The notes beneath the pieces are model-generated. The model had not been told where the DNA came from. It did no database searches and was given only the letters and a program-made list of their open reading frames with translations. Source: Candidatus Latescibacterota bacterium (GTDB lineage Bacteria; Latescibacterota; UBA2968). Taken from it: DNA of 64,000 nt. Where the stretch lies: NCBI GenBank assembly GCA_965204375.1, contig OZ241986.1, forward strand, positions 4,832,001-4,896,000. Direction: 5' to 3'. Each line of letters begins with the position of its first letter. Position 1 is the first letter of the stretch. The position numbers and the translations under genes were made by a program. Positions 11,689 through 19,784 of the stretch are shown piece by piece.

Positions 11689-12495
11689 ATGATGACCCCT
11701 GAACAGCGCTACCTCTTTGACCTCAACGGGTACCTGCACCTGCGCAATGCCCTCTCTGACGACGAACTGAGTGCCGCGCGAGAAGCAGCCGAACGCTACG
11801 TCACAACACCCGAATCGGAACTACCCGAGGGCTTTGGCAAAGACGGCAAACGCCACCTGCACGGCTTTGCATTCGACAGAGCACTCGAACGCCTGACCGT
11901 ACACCCCGCGATCTGGCCCATCGTCACAGAACTCACCAATGGCCGACCCCGCCTCACCAGCGGCACGCTTCAGGTCAACATCCCCGATCAAATCGACAAC
12001 GCACTTCGCCTGCACTGCGCCCGCGACGACTACGGCTGGGACGCCATCCGCTACGAAGTCCGCAACGGACACATCTTTTGCGACCACACCGTCTGCTTTC
12101 CCTACCTCACCGACGTGCATCCGGGCGACGGAGGTCTCCTCGTCATCCCCGGCTCACACAAAAGCATGTTTGATCGCCCCCGGCACCTCTTTCAAAACGG
12201 CCTGATCGAAAACCGCGACCACATCCCCGAAGGCGTGGTCAACATCACACCCAAAGCTGGCGACATCGTCGTCATGAACGAACTCGTCACCCACGGCGCC
12301 CTGCCCTGGACGCCAAAAGATCGCATGCGGATGATCCTCGTCTTGCGCTATCACCCCCAATACACAGGGGGATCAGAACTGCCCCAGGCCATCCAAAAAC
12401 GCCTCTCTCCTGAAACGCTCGAACTCACGGCACGCGCGGGTTATCAGGACCGAAAAGAAATCGCAACACGGGACAACATCGCGCTTACTGTATAG
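11689..12495 (+). CDS. PhyH family dioxygenase-like protein
   Basis: QRYLFDLNGYL, YLTDVHPGDGGLLVIPGSHK, KAGD...LVTHGALPW. Confidence 0.8.
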   Translation: MMTPEQRYLFDLNGYLHLRNALSDDELSAAREAAERYVTTPESELPEGFGKDGKRHLHGFAFDRALERLTVHPAIWPIVTELTNGRPRLTSGTLQVNIPDQIDNALRLHCARDDYGWDAIRYEVRNGHIFCDHTVCFPYLTDVHPGDGGLLVIPGSHKSMFDRPRHLFQNGLIENRDHIPEGVVNITPKAGDIVVMNELVTHGALPWTPKDRMRMILVLRYHPQYTGGSELPQAIQKRLSPETLELTARAGYQDRKEIATRDNIALTV

Positions 12496-12697
12496 GGTTC
12501 TGTCAATACGCCTCACATCACATCCTGTCCCTTTAGATGTTCTCAGTGAACTGGTCTGTACTGCCTGCTTATGTATCGGCAGACAGGCGCGCAAGCAGGG
12601 CTATGATCACCGGGGCCGCGTTTTTTCCGCACGAAGGTATCCAACTCATGCCGGACGGTCTCACCGGTAGAATCGGCCATGTTCCCCTTTTTTGGCG

Positions 12698-12740
12698 TAT
12701 AATGATAAATGAGTAAATTGCAATTATCTGCAATTTACTC
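12698..12740 (+). promoter_or_regulatory. TATAAT box followed by a perfect 12-bp inverted repeat (candidate operator)
   Basis: TATAAT 12698-12703; GAGTAAATTGCA-ATTATC-TGCAATTTACTC 12711-12740. Confidence 0.45.
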
Positions 12741-12900
12741 GAAAAAACAGGGGTTTGGAATGACATTTTGGCGAATAAAGTTTATTATATGCAAAAATTA
12801 AGACCTTCAAAATGTCTCAGTGTGAGAATCCAAAAAGAGTGTTCCTCCCTGAGCCTATTCACAACTTCCTTGCCCCAAAACGCATTTGCACACTGCCTGA

Positions 12901-13050
12901 AGCCGCGGTAAGCTGATCAGGCCGTGCGGTACGGGTAAGACGTTTGCCGCGCTACGTATCGTGGAGTCTATTGCGGGTATCGGTGGGCGTGTGCTCTATC
13001 TGGATCCGTCGATATTCGTAGGCGATGTAGCGGAAATAGTGGGCGAGTTG
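12901..13050 (+). pseudogene. Remnant of a type ISP (LlaGI/LlaBIII-like) R-M helicase gene
   Basis: Translates SRGKLIRPCGTGKTFAALRIVESIAGIGGRVLYLDPS (helicase motifs I and Ia in the RGKLIMxCGTGKT context); no start codon; absent from the ORF track. Confidence 0.65.
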
Positions 13051-13093
13051 TTAGAGGTAAGAGGAGAGAATTTTCTGGCGGGTGAAAGACTAT

Positions 13094-13717
13094 TTACCAT
13101 GTGGGTGGTTTAAAAAAATTACCATGGGCATCCCGTAATTGATCGGGAAGGAGACTCTGAGCGAGATGTGGGTTTATGATCTGCCCCACAAATGTGGCAT
13201 ACTCTTTAAGGATGGTTGATGGTCGGATACCAGGAAAATAGACACCTACGCTTAACCGCAATTCTCGGGTCACAATTCGGATGGCCTCCCCAAAATCAGA
13301 GTCATTGGATACCACAATGGCAGCTTCGTAATCCTTTTTGTAAGCATCGTTTAACAGGTGAACAGCAAGGTTGACATCTGAACCTTTTTCTTCAGTTTTC
13401 CAAACTTCCACAGTATTGGGAGGTGGCGTTACCAATGGCATTCTGGCTGAGCGGGTCTGAAAGTTGCCTTCAATAATTTCAATATTATTAAAAGTACGTA
13501 AAGCCCGCCAATAGAACGCTTGACGTGTCCGTTTTCCTGGATCATGCCGTGCATGTATACGAGCAGTAAAATACTTGATTTTTTGAATGTCATTACGAGG
13601 ATATCTGAGCGTAAACAATTTATTCAGGTCAAGCCACTTATAGGGTGTTCCCTTTAATGCACCGTAGTATAAGTTAAATCCATCAACATAAATATTTGTC
13701 TTGATTTTTTTCTTCAT
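13094..13717 (-). CDS. NYN domain (PIN-like, LabA/DUF88-related) ribonuclease
   Basis: IYVDGFNLYY, EEKGSDVNLA, VSNDSDF; acidic catalytic residues intact. Confidence 0.9.
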   Translation of the reverse strand: MKKKIKTNIYVDGFNLYYGALKGTPYKWLDLNKLFTLRYPRNDIQKIKYFTARIHARHDPGKRTRQAFYWRALRTFNNIEIIEGNFQTRSARMPLVTPPPNTVEVWKTEEKGSDVNLAVHLLNDAYKKDYEAAIVVSNDSDFGEAIRIVTRELRLSVGVYFPGIRPSTILKEYATFVGQIINPHLAQSLLPDQLRDAHGNFFKPPTW

Positions 13718-13761
13718 TATAATCTTTAAAATATAAAAATCGCGTTGGATATCATACGGTT

Positions 13762-13817
13762 AAACATAAATAGAATTGGCGCGAACCTCTTTGTTTCTGG
13801 TTTCGCGCCAATTCTAT
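13762..13817 (-). terminator. Intrinsic terminator-like hairpin between the RNA leader and the NYN gene
   Basis: Perfect 16-bp IR ATAGAATTGGCGCGAA / TTCGCGCCAATTCTAT (13770-13817); on the minus strand it is followed by UUAUGUUU. Confidence 0.65.
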
Positions 13818-13940
13818 ACTACGCAGTCTCAACATAGGAGACTTTCGATGTCTATCTCAAGAATAGATACTTAAAAATCTAAGAGTAGATACCTAAATAT
13901 CTACTCTTGAGCCCTGCTCCCGAAGCAACAGGGGGAATTA
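13762..13940 (-). ncRNA. Candidate structured RNA (five consecutive hairpins) upstream of the NYN nuclease
   Basis: CCCUGUU-gCUUCGGg-AGCAGGG (cUUCGg loop); AAGAGUAGAUA/UAUCUACUCUU; UCUAU/AUAGA; AGUCUC/GAGACU; terminator hairpin; bracketed by a promoter. Confidence 0.5.
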
Positions 13941-13945
13941 TGGGA

Positions 13946-13974
13946 AACTTAGCAAATACAGATACAAGAGTCAA
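13946..13974 (-). promoter_or_regulatory. Sigma70-type promoter for the RNA/NYN unit
   Basis: TTGACT - 17 bp - TAAGTT with extended TGn. Confidence 0.65.
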
Positions 13975-14009
13975 GCTCTTTATTGCAGGTTGCTCAATAC
14001 CATTCTTCC

Positions 14010-15202
14010 TTACTCTAAGACCGCAGGCAATGACCGGGTGCGTTGATCGATGGGCTGAGGCGCATCAAATTCTCCATCTCCAACGTCCAACTCCTGAAAC
14101 CGCCGCATAGAGGGCAAAACCCTGCGCTCCAGTGAACCAATGGCACCATTATAACTCTCAACGGCCTGATCGATATGGCGCCTCAAGGTGTTAAGGTGGT
14201 CGAAAAATGGCTTTATGCGCTGATACAGCTCTTTGCCCTCGTCTGCTATTTGACGCGCGTTTTCAGACATCGCCTGTTGTTGCCAGCCGTAAGCAACAGC
14301 CTTTAAGAACGCCAAAAGTGTAACGGGCGTTGTAATCAGCACCTAGCTTTGCAAGGCATATTCCAACAAACTCGGATCTTCCTCAAATGCCGCGGCAACA
14401 CTGGCTTCGACTGGCACAAACATTACGACAACCTCTGGTGCCTTTTCGAACTGCGACCAGTAGGCTTTTTGTCCCAATTCGCGCACTCGACTGCGTACCG
14501 CTTGAGCATGTGCTCTCATGTAGTCTTTGTATTCCGCATCATCACCAGCTTCTGCTGCATTCAAATATGCTGTCATTGGTGTTTTGGCATCTACCGGCAG
14601 CACTCCCCCACCTGGCAAATGCACAATCATATCCGGACGACCACTGTCACCCGACACCTGTTCCTCAAAAGCCACACGCCGTTCCATGCCCGCCAATTCC
14701 ACCACGCGACGTAACTGCACCTCGCCCCATTGCCCGCGTTTAGAAGACGATTTGAGTGCCTGAGATAACGTGACAGTCGTAGTTTGAAGTTCCTGCTGCG
14801 CTACCACGAGCCCCTTCAGCTGCTGGTCGAGTGCCCGATACGCGCCTTCTCGTTTCTCCTTCAGCGATCGCACATGCCCATCAAGTTTTGCATTTCTGTT
14901 TTCTGCGTTTTCCAGTCGCCGCGTACCTCATTTAGTACGCCGGTCATTTGCGTCTGCGCCTGTTTCAAAAACGCATCGGCATTGTGACGCAAAGACTTGC
15001 CTGCCAGCGAGTCAAAAGCCTCGCGCAATTTTTCTTCTGCTTTTTGGATCCACTCCTCTTTGTCAGTCTGGGCTTCCTTCTCGCTCTGCAACTTCGCCAA
15101 CTCAATACGCAAAGCCTCATCCCCACTCTTTCGCAGGCTCATAATCACGCCCCCAACTACACCCCCAATTACAAATGCGATCAATAGATACAGCATTTCC
15201 AT
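14010..15202 (-). pseudogene. rmuC: RmuC-family DNA recombination/nuclease protein, disrupted
   Basis: N-terminal TM + coiled coil; RGQWGEVQLRRVVELAG, RPDMIVHLP, VDAKTP, VMFVPVE, TTPVTLLA. Frameshift/deletion near 14870-14880 and in-frame TAG at 14343-14345. Confidence 0.8.
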
Positions 15203-15264
15203 ATAAACTCCTTTTGAGGACAACCAATAAAACATCCTTTGAGATGAATGCGTGACCTCGAGCG

Positions 15265-16332
15265 TCAATCATCATCCTTGCTCGGAATGATCAAGCGGAA
15301 CAGCACGGGATGATGATCCGAGTAGTATTTTGGAAATTCATAAATATCGTACGGATCGCCGGGATAAGGATCTGAGCTTTGCCATGTGTCGCGCATCTGG
15401 TTGATCAGGTCAATGATCTGAAAATCAAACGCCTCGTCTATCTCGTCTAACGCCGCATGCTTGGCTGGGCGATACATAACGTGGTCATAAGGCTTACTCT
15501 TCCCGGCTGCCGTATTCGTCTTTTGGCACTCGTCATTCAGCGATACAAATCCCGCTGGCGTCACATCCCAAAGCTCCGCTTTGTCTTCGATATTCATATC
15601 CCCTACGATGTAGAAGTCCTGTTCCTGTTCGCCGTGTTGGTCAATCCACTCGGCTATGCTCAAAAGCTCGGCCTTGCGTTCTTTTTTTTTGTTTCTGCCT
15701 GGGAACAAATGGACGTTGATGATGACAAAATCCATCTTGCCATCTATGGTGCGGAAGCTGTGGGCATGCGGTACACGGCGATACACGAGGTGGGCTGAGC
15801 GATCTTTTGCCAGAAAGCCGTGAGGTAAATCATCGGCAATCTTCAGTTTGTCAGGCTTGTAAAAAACTACCGACCATTCGGTGTTTATTCCCTTATTGTG
15901 GATTTTTTCTACACTGCCTGTGTCTTCACAAGATAGGGAGTAATCAAAGCCCTGTGCGCTCATCGCATCGAAGAAGGCATCTGCTTCGGGATCCTCTGTA
16001 TATGGCGTTCCATCGCAGTATTGACCGTTATCGGGCGGTGCGACGAGCTCTTGAACGACAACCATATCATAAGGGCTGACCAACTGAGCAAGACTCTTAT
16101 TCTGCTTCTTGTTCGATGAGCCAACGAATTTGATGTTGAAAGAACAGACTGTGATCTTCTTGTCGGTGACTGACTGTTGGCAACCGAACGAGAACAGTAG
16201 AATGCATAATAAAAAGTATTTTTTAAGGCTTTGTAGGTACAAGTATGGTCGCAGCCAAGGGCCATACTGCTCCGCGCCAACGGCCTTCCTCATCTCTAAC
16301 CTCACTACCGAGTTTTTCTCGGATATGCACAT
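15265..16332 (-). CDS. Endonuclease/exonuclease/phosphatase (DNase I-like) lipoprotein; start uncertain
   Basis: SFNIK, VQEL, VGDMN, YDH, SDHHPV motifs; lipobox-like KKYFLLCILLFSFGC near 16222. Confidence 0.8.
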   Translation of the reverse strand: MCISEKNSVVRLEMRKAVGAEQYGPWLRPYLYLQSLKKYFLLCILLFSFGCQQSVTDKKITVCSFNIKFVGSSNKKQNKSLAQLVSPYDMVVVQELVAPPDNGQYCDGTPYTEDPEADAFFDAMSAQGFDYSLSCEDTGSVEKIHNKGINTEWSVVFYKPDKLKIADDLPHGFLAKDRSAHLVYRRVPHAHSFRTIDGKMDFVIINVHLFPGRNKKKERKAELLSIAEWIDQHGEQEQDFYIVGDMNIEDKAELWDVTPAGFVSLNDECQKTNTAAGKSKPYDHVMYRPAKHAALDEIDEAFDFQIIDLINQMRDTWQSSDPYPGDPYDIYEFPKYYSDHHPVLFRLIIPSKDDD

Positions 16333-19300
16333 CTTGGGATAAAACCTCCTTAAGGAAACTCTGGTCTAGGTCAAGATGGGAAAATTTCGTATCGTCTTTG
16401 CGAAAATTTGTCCAGATAATATCTTCGACGAGTTCCCCATCAAGTTCTTCAGGTTTAGGATCGGAAGGCGAGAGTGCGAACAGCCGGAGTTCATGATTGA
16501 AAAAGTGTTCATCTCTCAAGTGGGCAACGAGGTAACTGAGCAATACCACAGGCTCGTCAGCATTATCCGAGAAATAGGCACGTTCCTCCTTGTCATAGGT
16601 GCCAATACCGAGAACGAGGTTTGGCATATCCTCAATATTCTCAGCGGTCCGGAGAGTCTGTAACGCACAGGCGATTATTGGGTGGTTAATACCACCACTT
16701 TTGCATCGGCTCACAGATGGAGATAGTGCTGCTGCTTCACGGTCAAAGACTACCCAACGATTTTGCATTTGATTGTCATTAATATAATAACGAATGGCCT
16801 CCTTTTCTTCAGACCGAAAACTGTCAGTACTAAGATCATAACTCACCTTGTTATAGTTCACTATCCCCTTAGTAGCTTTAATCTTGTCCGACTCTTGGAG
16901 TAGTTCAACCAGATGTTCCATCGTAGCCCTGCCTTTTTCGTCGGGGAGTTGTTCAACCCTGTGGCGGCGCAGTTCATCGTCCACCTGCTCCACATGTTGT
17001 TTGCCTGCTTCAACGGCCTCTCCAATAACCGCATCGTCGGCAGTTTGGCTGCTGAATAGATTTCGCAGTATTTCTAAAGGGATACCCGCCATAATGCGGC
17101 GAAAGTATTCCTCTTGCTTTGTCTCACTCTCCGTGAGATCATTCACGATGTCCAAAAGGCGCTTCGTAAGGCGCCAATATATATCAGCTTCGCGGGAGTC
17201 CCGCAGCAGAATTGTATCTACAATAATTTCATATATCGTGCCGATACGATGCACTCGCCCTATGCGTTGCTCCAAGACCATCGGGTTCCACGGCAGATCG
17301 AAATGGATCAGGCGCCGGGCAATTTGTAGATTGATTCCCTCGCCTCCAGCAGCACTCGACACAAGTACTCTGCGACCGAGGCGACCAGGCTTTGTGAAAT
17401 TCTCTATCGCCGTTCTTCGCTCTGAGGGATCTTGTCCTCCAACGATTACACAGCATGGAATGCCGAGTTGCTCCACATGGCGCTTTATCTCAAAGACCGT
17501 GTCCACGCTCTGGGCAAATACGACGAAAGGCTCATCCTCTTCTTCCAAGAGTTGTGTGAGAACATCGAATTTCGCCTTCGCCTGTGGTGAAGATATCAAA
17601 GAAGCGTACTGCATGAGAAGTTTCGAAAGCCGCCGCTTCTCTTCTTGGCGCATTGCAGCAACGCTGACAGGTCCAACTGATTCATTGAGATCATCGTCTT
17701 CCTCGACGTAATCAGATTCATCCTCTTTCACTGACTTGAGCAACTCTTCTATAAGATCCTCAGGCCTTTGTTTCGCGGACCGATGTCGATATGGAATCAG
17801 TAGCTTAACCCACTCCAGTAGTGTCTTTTCTTTTTTCTCATCAGCGAAATGGCGCAAGTAGCGGCGTAACAGGAAGGCGAATCCAGCCTTAGGGGAACTG
17901 GCCGCATATTGAAGGGCGTGACTCTTCACAAATCCGAGTGCTTGTCTCTTATCATTGGAGTTGTACTGGAGCCAATCGAAAAACTCAGCAATATCGGATA
18001 ACAGGTTATTGTATTCGGAAGGATTGTCTGCATAACGGGGCTGACGGACATTCCTTCGAGGAAAAACAGGACGATCATCCCAATCGCGTATTTCCTCCTT
18101 GATTCGGTAGATAACTCGTCCAGCTATCGCTCGTTGTTGTTCCTCTTGAGAGGCTCTGCGGCCAAGGCCGCACATGAGAGAAATCAAGTTTAGGAACACT
18201 TCGCGATTGCCTTGATGCGGCGTACCAGATAAAAAATAGACACGCCCGCCCTCAGCAAGATGGTGTCCAATGATCTGTTCAAATAGTCTAAACCACTTCT
18301 GAGCGTTTTGGCTATCGCCAGAGCCATACATCCTGAGTTTATGACACTCGTCAGCGATAACTACATCCCATTGTGTACCGCGAAGATAATTTTCTGGATT
18401 TGAGCCAAATCCGAGTCGATGAAGCGACGCGGCAACACATCGATCATGCTCTTTTAGTCCCAATCGGGCTGGAGAGTATTTCTTTTCATCCAGCGAACTA
18501 TTGGCGAATACCCAAAAATCATCCAAGCCCATGTTCTTAAACTCATCTACTACATTGGTTACCAAGCTCCCTGGGGTGACATATAGAACGCGTAAGTCAG
18601 GCTTTGCGGCCTTTAAGCGTTCCAAGAGGAGCCCCATCTCGATAGTCTTACCAAGACCAACTTCGTCAGCAATGAGCATCTCCCGTGGTGCCTCAGCCCC
18701 ACTGAGATACTCAACGAGACTTGTCTGGTGACGGAGTTGAAGAACAGGCAAGCTGTCGAGTTGCCCTGACTGGTTCTCAGCCTGAAGCCAGTAAGCCGCC
18801 AAGCGGCGGAAGTGCTCCTTAGAGTTAGAGACTGCCGCAATACCCTCGTGGGCAAGCTGAGCCGCAGGGGTATCCCAAAAGTCCGGCTTGGCCTCATTGA
18901 CAAACGGTTTCGGTACCTGGATGCGTGCTGGATGATGCTCTGGATCCACCGGTGATATATCCGAAACCGCAAGCCACTGCTCCTGTCCAAAGAGTCCGCT
19001 ACCCTCGGTCTGCACTTGGGCTATCCCCCACATAGGTCGGTCTCGAAAAACTACATATTCTCGCTGCTTCATGTATTGATTCTCCTTCTTCTTTTTATCG
19101 CCGAGAGTAGGCCGTAAAGTTCGGCCATCTTTCCACCAGCGATCAAAAACCTCGACTAACTGTTTGATTGTTGATTCCGAGAATTTTCCTGATAATCCTA
19201 CCGACATTTCGATATTGTGAGGTTGTATTCCCAGACCCAGACCTTTACCAGTCAGGTTCACCGATCCGACAACCGCTGCTTTATCATCCAGAATAAGGAT

Positions 19301-19784
19301 CTTCGGATGAAATATCCCATCTTCATCTCTTACTGGTCCTGGTCGCGCTGATGCGGTTCGACATTCAATTTCATCGCTGGCAAACATCGTCTCTATAATT
19401 GAGGACACCACCCGAGAATCAGTTTGCCCCATATCCGATAGTAACTTTATCTGGACTTGTCGGTCTCGGGTCAAACGTCGAATCCACTGAAGACCAAGCA
19501 CACTAACAGTGAATGTCGCGCATCGAATCGTTTTGAAGGACACCTCCTGTGCCGTTCTTTCGAGCCACTCCCTTAGGTAGTGTCTGAAAAGTCTGAATTT
19601 CCTCTAAATACCGATTTGGGCTATTCACCAAACCCTATAAAATAAGGTGTCTGATAAAATCGCTTACAAGTCATTTTAGGCTCAAAGCGACTTTTCAGAC
19701 AGAACCTAGTGCGATGCCGTCTTCCAACGCGATAACGCCTGCATCATCCTGTACCCTCAATCCCTTTTCTTTCAACTTTTCCAT
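16223..19784 (-). CDS. PLD(HKD)-nuclease / SNF2-type helicase fusion, 5' end interrupted by a MITE
   Basis: FHPKILILD...VGSVNLT (HKD); ADEVGLGKT, ADECH, SGTP, GGEGINLQ, DLPWNPMVLEQRIGRVHRIG. Removing 19576-19708 joins ATG 19784 (MEKLKEK...GIA) in frame to LREWLERTAQEVSFK. Confidence 0.8.
19576..19706. mobile_element. 131-bp MITE with 18-bp terminal inverted repeats and TA target duplication
   Basis: GGTAGTGTCTGAAAAGTC ... GACTTTTCAGACAGAACC (16/18 match), TA on both sides, no coding capacity; excision restores the host reading frame. Confidence 0.85.

Follow-up and report, generated by a model that had tools for sequence, protein, structure and literature searches.

The locus examined here lies in a 64,000-nucleotide stretch of contig OZ241986.1 from a Candidatus Latescibacterota bacterium (called the window throughout). 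It consists of a promoter, five hairpins and an intact gene for an NYN-fold protein, all at 13094-13974 on the minus strand, the strand to which all coordinates of the locus refer (Table 1). The original prediction, made from the sequence alone, saw in this arrangement a hairpin-rich RNA of about 180 nt, a terminator and an NYN ribonuclease, and proposed an RNA antitoxin or defence module for which no named system was known. Direct reading and RNA folding established that the promoter, the five hairpins and the intact gene are real. The NYN reading frame has PF01936 as its sole Pfam match (E = 1.8e-10; 41.9 bits against a cutoff of 24.2), and the HEC-09 profile of PADLOC matches it at full length (positions 5-202 of 203, E = 3.5e-40). 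Active-site residues D12, D114 and N138-D-S-D141, including D139, are invariant among 20 aligned NYN sequences, and an AlphaFold2 model of the protein (predicted local distance difference test score, 88) has its best matches in the Protein Data Bank in 2qip and the NYN domain of MARF1. At the level of these models the NYN fold is confirmed; nuclease activity is predicted. The closest proteins (P0001-P0005) are 80-98% identical to the window protein, and the family numbers at least 7929 homologues at E <= 1e-10.

The system is not without a name, as the original prediction had supposed, at least as far as the protein is concerned. HEC-09 (PADLOC PDLC04163) is a Hma-embedded candidate defence gene for a MARF1-like NYN protein, and the available part of its description reports that, when cloned with its native promoter region, it gave no protection against any phage tested in E. 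coli (Payne et al., bioRxiv 10.1101/2024.01.29.577857). The window protein resembles this candidate in its full-length match, in its MARF1-like NYN fold and in its position beside an HmaA-like helicase in a defence island. What sets the locus apart is the RNA motif described below, no RNA partner being mentioned in the available part of that account.

Upstream of the gene, the -10 element of the RNA promoter matches TATAAT at only three of six positions, and for this reason a simple consensus scan left the promoter unlisted. Relatives in the genus have a better -10 at the same place, and TTGAYTC stands at the equivalent -35 position in G016, G005 and G006, the three genomes with which we compared the window type of leader (type A). 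The same scan flagged the 11-bp hairpin 2 with its AGAUUUUUAA tail as terminator-like, and a repeat search confirmed the 11-bp and 16-bp inverted repeats of hairpins 2 and 5 as perfect. A strain variant at 13898 turns an A-U pair of the hairpin 2 stem, read in the sense of the RNA, into G.U. Folding of the 251 nt from 13950 to 13700 gives an energy of -85.4 kcal/mol, against -48.5 +/- 4.3 in 200 dinucleotide shuffles, none of which was as stable (z = -8.6). The 11-mer AAGARTAGATA occurs three times in the leader, one copy being the reverse complement of the other two, just as had been predicted, and the minimum-energy fold uses an alternative pairing of the third copy with the 5' arm of hairpin 2. 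Hairpin 5 may mark the end of a longer form of the RNA. Also in agreement with the original prediction, no GGAG-like Shine-Dalgarno sequence precedes the NYN ATG. The region lies 35 nt past the stop codon of rmuC. The leader has no small frames other than two, of 31 and 27 amino acids, which have their starts in the -35 box and in the loop of a hairpin; a coding leader was rejected on account of these implausible starts.

The conservation of this region was examined in 80 NYN loci at 45-57% identity, using a 20-sequence alignment that was scanned over species-representative genomes. By their record titles, these loci come from Acidobacteriota, Chloroflexota, Gemmatimonadota, Actinomycetota, Proteobacteria, Verrucomicrobia, Saccharibacteria, Oscillospiraceae, Desulfatiglandaceae, Zixibacteria, Latescibacteria, Armatimonadetes, Planctomycetota and Trueperaceae. 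Almost all share a motif of about 65 nt, comprising a few unpaired bases that end in a run of C, helix 1, a single base, helix 2 and a run of U. Helix 1 is usually capped by CUUCGG on a CCC/GGG closing stem, and helix 2 has a conserved GCGAG...CUCUGC foot with a bulged U; in the window a sequence variant, hairpin 2, takes the place of this terminator helix. Unpaired stretches extend over a few nucleotides at most, both variants of the RNA begin with an unpaired, C-rich tail, and the bases at the feet of the helices are nearly invariant across phyla.

The structure, written down by hand, was tested on 46 seed copies. Of the cells in the pair table 93% were paired, and 16 of the 20 pairs had changed on both sides (144 cells). 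None of 500 shuffles reached the observed score, partners slid by 1-3 columns paired in only 35-48% of cells, and RNAalifold agreed with the structure. Summed over the pair table of this alignment, 76 of 890 cells are G.U; since these would be C.A mismatches on the opposite strand, the structure belongs to the strand of the motif. Of the 80 loci, 79 matched a covariance model of the motif (R1) at full length, with scores of 32.9 bits or more; the contig of the eightieth has just 48 nt upstream of its NYN gene and a truncated match. The window sequence at 13872-13939 matches R1 at full length with 50.0 bits (E = 8.8e-14). The check named in the original prediction, for conserved and covarying structure near NYN homologues, was thus strongly positive. 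The proposal of a structured RNA tied to NYN stands, whereas its length of about 180 nt does not: judged by the extent of the model match, the conserved unit is hairpins 1 and 2 with the U-run, about 68 nt in the window, and hairpins 3-5 (13869-13762) are, on comparison of genomes, a genus-level addition outside the family motif that occurs also without NYN.

The motif appears in none of the collections that we consulted. Rfam 15 gave no match at E <= 1 in window positions 12000-15500, and in eight motif-bearing loci its sole match was a weak and unrelated one to ylbH, elsewhere in one of them (L074). A literature search, which did not extend to the supplement of Weinberg 2017 (a possible list of NYN-linked motifs), found no RNA partner of NYN, PF01936, DUF88 or LabA-like proteins. 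We found no paper that joins 'NYN' with 'type III toxin-antitoxin', and 'NYN' was not found in the main texts of the structured-RNA surveys listed. The RNA family is widespread, so far unnamed and absent from Rfam 15; its protein is already known as HEC-09.

The position of the motif relative to NYN varied among the 79 loci. It lay upstream in tandem in 58, divergently in 13 (mostly Acidobacteriota, with 56-97 nt from the 5' end of the RNA to the start codon) and convergently downstream in 8 (mostly Actinomycetota, with the RNA gene -3 to 21 nt from the NYN stop). In all but two of the 58 tandem loci the terminator, formed by helix 2 and the U-run, ended 0-36 nt before the NYN start. Scoring as a promoter any sigma70-like sequence with at least 9/12 matches and a -10 ending 3-14 nt before the motif, we detected one for 44 of the 79 copies, compared with 1 of 309 control offsets; the 44 comprised 34 of the 58 tandem copies and 10 of the 21 on the opposite strand. 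Since the RNA has its own promoter and terminator, and its NYN neighbour is kept while side and strand change, we conclude from the comparative data that it is an independent, trans-acting partner gene and that a cis leader alone is inadequate as a description. For the window, the predicted order of promoter, RNA, terminator and RNase, resembling that of a type III system, was borne out; in the family the RNA gene is also found divergent or convergent, so it is more than a leader.

The linkage was also approached from the side of the RNA, by scanning metagenome contigs, blind to their genes, with a degenerate DNA pattern whose fixed positions cannot vary. Full R1 matches were present in 66 of the 80 loci fetched, and in 70 matches 96.4% of cells were paired, a value reached in 0/500 shuffles. 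An NYN gene or NYN fragment adjoined 49 of the 66 copies, in tandem in 30, convergently in 10 and divergently in 9. The other 17 had no NYN, and in six of these the contig extended for less than 300 nt on one side. The remaining 11 orphan copies shared no neighbour family (AbiEii, hsdR/hsdM, an addiction-module antidote, DnaA/MaoC, beta-lactamase and others were seen); several of the neighbours are toxin-antitoxin or restriction genes and others are housekeeping genes. One orphan (L193) is placed between hsdR and hsdM, which belong to a type I restriction system, and so is 'embedded' in the way that HEC genes are. In a phylum sample of 151 genomes, strong motif matches outside the genus were few. 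They were one orphan copy; a copy of 52.5 bits in G021 that is separated by an ISL3 transposase, and by about 2.9 kb in all, from a 47%-identical NYN gene (L159); and a copy of 63 bits in G117 that lies 215 nt upstream of a DUF3800 gene and not of NYN (L157, 1501-2554), and which may connect the motif with the RNAs that Weinberg 2017 associated with DUF3800. Taken together, the comparative data leave us almost certain that the RNA and NYN are linked.

Within the 6.34-Mb genome of the organism itself, the 24 nt of hairpin 1 occur in exactly three identical copies, with no more at up to 5 mismatches. These are the window copy, a copy 37 nt before a 61%-identical NYN paralogue, and an orphan copy with the same second hairpin and without NYN. 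The R1 model likewise scored just these three, the next best match having 18 bits. The case that the original prediction named as refuting it, a miniature inverted-repeat transposable element (MITE) dispersed away from NYN genes, did not hold, and a MITE or other dispersed repeat was rejected on the basis of the three copies. Searching 132 genomes of the class with a 22-nt core of hairpin 1 (up to 2 mismatches), we obtained 21 sites in 15 genomes, and none with a reversed-pattern control; at exact-match sites in relatives from the genus the core is identical. Ten of the 21 sites precede an intact NYN gene, four a broken one and seven no NYN. Among the broken genes, one is truncated, another has an internal deletion and two are interrupted by an insert of about 1.2 kb. 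In G005 and G006 the start of the RNA is joined directly to the 3' end of NYN or to downstream DNA, both deletions breaking just past the third 11-mer. Each of the 14 NYN genes of the genus at 57% identity or more carries the hairpin, and we saw no NYN gene of this clade that lacked the RNA. Paired arms of the second hairpin differ in a compensatory way (GAAGCC/GGCUUC against GGAGCC/GGCUCC, and GUAUAG/CUAUAC against GCAUAG/CUAUGC), and a compensatory change preserves it in the orphan copy of G001 too. G016 keeps all five hairpins, with a compensatory change in the 16-bp stem, and because a different small gene follows them there, the five-hairpin unit is separable from NYN.

Further features were noted in leader regions. 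In six loci (L010, L003 and L014-L017) the DNA upstream of the type-B RNA contains a palindrome, GTGTCAAAAATAATTGACAC, that resembles an operator and shares bases with the -35 box of the type-B promoter; two more small hairpins lie ahead of hairpin 1. A sequence of about 21 nt, GGRATTATGTAGRATAGTGMC, is common to L010, L012, L013 and L038, where it lies about 100-250 nt upstream of NYN although the insertion sites are otherwise unrelated; it may mark the boundary of an element or be a repeat of the repetitive extragenic palindromic (REP) kind.

NYN homologues are also found on mobile elements. We counted 96 plasmid records (28 Klebsiella, 25 Escherichia and 7 Leptospira among them), many of them ColE1-type plasmids of 3.5-5.7 kb, and noted a homologue near the immunity region, integrase and repressor of the Mycobacterium prophage prophiGD43A-1. 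R1 found the motif beside NYN in each of the four mobile records tested (Table 1). On a 4.6-kb E. coli plasmid (pRHB40-C03_3; L294, 577-721) the C-rich tail and hairpin 1 form a tandem array with a period of 33 and 2.6 copies at 96%, together with a fourth, diverged unit with compensated changes; one terminator and NYN come next. Ten of 5426 complete E. coli genomes have this 4.6-kb type, in which the protein alone is annotated. The 3461-bp plasmid (L293, 3062-3170) apparently has two copies of the motif, the first without a U-run, and whole-motif tandem copies number two each in L075, L126 and L140 and three in L025, a locus of the 33-39% clade described below, where they are about 200 nt apart.

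More distant NYN genes are accompanied by other RNAs. In a clade at 33-39% identity, which includes a third paralogue of the organism's own genome, 14 of 16 loci gave weak R1 matches (9-21 bits). This clade has a divergent RNA with covarying stems, made up of a C-tail, a hairpin whose loop reads AUAGUAU, and a terminator. On this comparative evidence, the shape of the RNA differs among NYN clades. At about 30% identity (L297-L303, from Klebsiella/E. coli ColRNAI plasmids, an Aeromonas plasmid and Pseudomonas/Xanthomonas plasmids) we noted by eye other structured leaders with a terminator just before the start; an element, GCGAUUAAGUUACGC, occurs twice in the enterobacterial leaders of this set and partially in that of Aeromonas. 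The Pseudomonas/Xanthomonas genes are annotated as nicB or HspA hydroxylase, probably a misnomer.

Table 1. Features of the NYN locus in the window, and related RNA copies on other replicons
Feature	Position	Strand or orientation	Basis or detail
Module: promoter, five hairpins and intact NYN gene	13094-13974	minus	direct reading
-35 box of the RNA promoter, TTGACT	13969..13974	minus	direct reading
Extended -10, TGc + TAAGTT	13946..13954	minus	17-nt spacer to -35; 6 nt before start of model match
NYN-associated small RNA motif: C-rich 5' tail, hairpin 1, hairpin 2, U-run (intrinsic terminator)	13872..13939	minus	R1 covariance match
Hairpin 1, UUCG-capped, 24 nt	13911..13934	minus	7 pairs, G.G mismatch, C-G pair closing the UUCG loop
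Hairpin 2 and U-run	13873..13908; U-run 13877-13873	minus	perfect 11-bp arms 13908-13898 / 13891-13881, then AGAUUUUUAA
Third 11-mer copy (UAUCUAUUCUU)	13859..13869	minus	can pair with 5' arm of hairpin 2 in read-through RNA
Short stem 3	about 13867-13851	minus	direct reading and fold
Short hairpin 4, 6 bp	13825..13843	minus	direct reading and fold; kept in G016
Hairpin 5, second terminator-like element	13762..13817	minus	perfect 16-bp arms 13817-13802 / 13785-13770, U-rich tail UUUAUGUUU
NYN-fold ribonuclease gene (predicted activity), 207 aa, HEC-09 family	13094..13717	minus	Pfam, PADLOC, predicted fold
RNA of the 33-39% NYN clade, own genome	L011 1318-1374 (G000:C1 about 5100360-5100420); relatives L022-L035	transcribed divergently	
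Motif beside NYN, Mycobacterium prophage		convergent	62.8 bits
Motif beside NYN, Leptospira plasmid		tandem	37.7 bits
Motif beside NYN, E. coli 3461-bp plasmid		tandem	31.8 bits
Motif beside NYN, E. coli 4612-bp plasmid		tandem	25.7 bits

The surroundings of the locus in the window agree with the defence setting that had been predicted. The island contains a HEPN gene, a PLD-SNF2 helicase, a TIR-like gene, a type II methylase-endonuclease pair, a Schlafen-like gene and insertion elements. The best PADLOC match of the helicase (16223-19543) is HmaA (2.1e-53), with DrmD and BrxH close behind; no Hma methylase or ATPase was identified, and the nearby methylase scores as type II. The rmuC gene is broken: frames at 14343-14873 and 14010-14342 (minus) both match Pfam RmuC with an in-frame TAG between them, and the N-terminal part lies in a third frame, at 14861-15268 (minus), which overlaps the second. 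Decay to a pseudogene, an error of sequencing or read-through could each explain this. A related strain has a 5-nt insertion after 13998. On the plus strand, a Walker-A helicase fragment without a Pfam match (12900-13113) abuts the NYN stop codon, and in G005_C12, where NYN is deleted, the DNA of this same window segment directly follows the RNA.

Evidence at the RNA level came from assembled Logan contigs, which cannot show starts, ends or strand. One metatranscriptome contig (X5) covers 12950-13891, and with it NYN, hairpins 3-5 and the 3' half of hairpin 2. No metatranscriptome contig was found over 13892-14020, and DNA of the same sample spans the whole stretch. A break in the assembly or a processing site may account for the end of the contig at 13891-13894, within the hairpin 2 loop.

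We put the chance at about one half (0.5) that the RNA is an inhibitor of the NYN nuclease, an RNA antitoxin in a type III-like layout. The window is predicted to encode, at 13872-13939 on the minus strand, an RNA of about 65-70 nt running from its own promoter to the hairpin 2 terminator. Together with a HEC-09-type NYN gene, of which it is the obligate neighbour, this RNA gene forms a mobile two-gene module, carried by defence islands, small plasmids and a prophage. In the proposed mechanism, most transcripts would stop at the RNA's own terminator, leaving the RNA in excess, and the nuclease would be made from read-through alone, which in the window would have to pass two terminators and lead to a start without a Shine-Dalgarno sequence. 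By way of the conserved bases at the foot of both helices the RNA would bind NYN and hold the nuclease inactive, much as in type III toxin-antitoxin or abortive-infection systems. The two terminator-like hairpins and the missing Shine-Dalgarno sequence fit a very low expression of NYN, as judged from the sequence, and the loss of NYN with retention of the RNA, exemplified in the genus by four broken NYN genes and seven RNAs without NYN, looks like the decay pattern expected of a toxin gene.

The type III systems ToxIN, CptIN and TenpIN consist of an antitoxin of tandem RNA repeats, a Rho-independent terminator and an endoribonuclease toxin of the ToxN/AbiQ-like kind, which inhibits growth, is neutralised by the RNA, cleaves the precursor of the latter and binds the product. 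The order of promoter, small structured RNA, Rho-independent terminator and endoribonuclease gene is the same here, and both are mobile and associated with defence. A terminator between RNA and toxin is present at hairpin 2 with its U-run (13908-13873) and again at 13817-13762. Tandem repeats are not found in the window, which has a single two-hairpin unit, but arrays occur in some relatives, and the parallel is strengthened by the repeat arrays on E. coli plasmids. The fold is not ToxN/AbiQ-like; Pfam and structural matches make it NYN/PIN-like. The RNA of the NYN module can also be divergent or convergent, and the functional likeness, drawn from layout, would be one of analogy. On the evidence of sequence, the NYN module is not a member of ToxIN, CptIN or TenpIN.

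Several points weigh against an antitoxin. The window copy is a single unit and not a repeat array, and the toxin would have an NYN and not a ToxN-like fold. Two NYN clades whose proteins are only about 61% identical have the same hairpin 1 sequence upstream, so an extra assumption is required, be it cross-neutralisation, gene conversion or a host factor. Of the metagenome copies flanked on both sides by 300 nt of contig or more, about 18% (11/60) lack a nearby NYN, and the RNA may for this reason have a role of its own. The metatranscriptome contig stops in the loop of hairpin 2, which leaves a discrete small RNA neither shown nor excluded. HEC-09 had no phage phenotype in E. coli, and the available part of its description does not mention toxicity (10.1101/2024.01.29.577857).

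Alternatively, the RNA could control the expression of NYN and not the NYN protein, in a type I-like or autoregulatory manner such as that of RNase leaders, for which the E. coli rne and rnc leaders, and Regnase-1, an NYN/PIN-like enzyme that cleaves stem-loops in its own mRNA, provide precedents. A hairpin in an RNase transcript that could be bound or cut by the enzyme is common to these cases and ours. Acting in cis, the RNA would combine a terminator or attenuator with a structured 5' end, as the tandem position in 58 of the 80 loci, with the terminator 0-36 nt from the start in 56, would lead one to expect. Acting in trans, its tail, C-rich in both variants, would pair with a G-rich ribosome-binding site, or it would serve as antisense in the convergent or divergent arrangement; the RNA gene directly adjoins the NYN stop in all 8 convergent loci, and NYN transcripts could run through it in antisense. 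However, the autoregulatory stem-loops are strictly cis elements, whereas this RNA has a promoter and terminator of its own, and a purely cis element cannot account for the 21 of 80 loci in which it lies on the other strand. Antisense needs no cross-phylum conservation of the helix feet, which nevertheless hardly vary; compensatory changes are found in orphan copies that have persisted, and hairpin 1 has no long complementary target in the genome (both strands, up to 5 mismatches). We regard control of expression as unlikely, though it is the likeliest of the alternatives.

Less probable again is that the RNA is a positive cofactor or a substrate of NYN, whether scaffold, guide, sensor or a precursor matured by the enzyme. 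The unexplained DUF3800-I to -XI, drum and skipping-rope motifs show the same pattern: in the available part of their description different RNA shapes serve different protein clades (Weinberg et al. 2017; PMC5737381). The DUF3800 protein has since been recognised as a defence RNase with an RNase H fold, and the copy in G117 lies 215 nt upstream of a DUF3800 gene. The NYN motif is like these RNAs, as far as that part of the source describes them, in its association with a protein, its terminator end, its RNase-fold defence partner and its clade-specific shapes. It is unlike them in having NYN and not DUF3800 as its partner, G117 excepted, and in giving no Rfam 15 match to those families. On these comparisons we place it as a sister case of the DUF3800-type RNAs and not as a member of any named motif; the function of those RNAs being unexplained too, the likeness gives no mechanism. 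The lack of a phenotype for HEC-09, in the available part of the preprint, would also suit a need for particular conditions or partners. On the other hand, the unpaired parts of the RNA, at a few nucleotides, are too short for a guide, the loss of NYN with the RNA kept suits an antidote better than a cofactor, and the terminator throttles the protein and not the RNA.

Very improbable, and already contradicted by copy number, covariation, NYN linkage and promoter data, is the view that the hairpins are incidental or act at the DNA level, as an rmuC terminator, a MITE or REP element, a recombination site or a tiny coding frame: the region does lie 35 nt after the rmuC stop codon, its leader has two small frames and the deletions in G005 and G006 both break just past the third 11-mer, but there are only three copies in the genome, the pairs are strand-specific and include G.U, a promoter precedes the motif and a U-run follows it, NYN linkage extends across phyla whatever the upstream gene, and the small frames start in the -35 box or a hairpin loop.

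Returning to the RNA as an antitoxin, the broader proposal is that HEC-09-type NYN genes and their terminator-ended small RNAs constitute a new and very widespread class of RNA-neutralised toxin or abortive-infection system, resembling type III but with an NYN-fold toxin, to which we give slightly less than even odds. If it is true, a new toxin fold would be added to the RNA-antitoxin systems, and the class would comprise thousands of loci in at least 15 phyla, including small E. coli and Klebsiella plasmids, Leptospira plasmids and a mycobacterial prophage, with an RNA shape that depends on the clade. Together with the DUF3800 RNAs, the pairing of a defence RNase with a private small RNA would then be a general design that protein-centred catalogues have missed. 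Should the function of NYN depend on an unannotated neighbouring RNA, single-gene assays and catalogues would be incomplete. The natural copies on E. coli plasmids of 3.5-4.6 kb make the module directly testable, and the proposal offers a testable hypothesis for the long-unexplained terminator-ended RNAs that are tied to RNase genes (Weinberg 2017).

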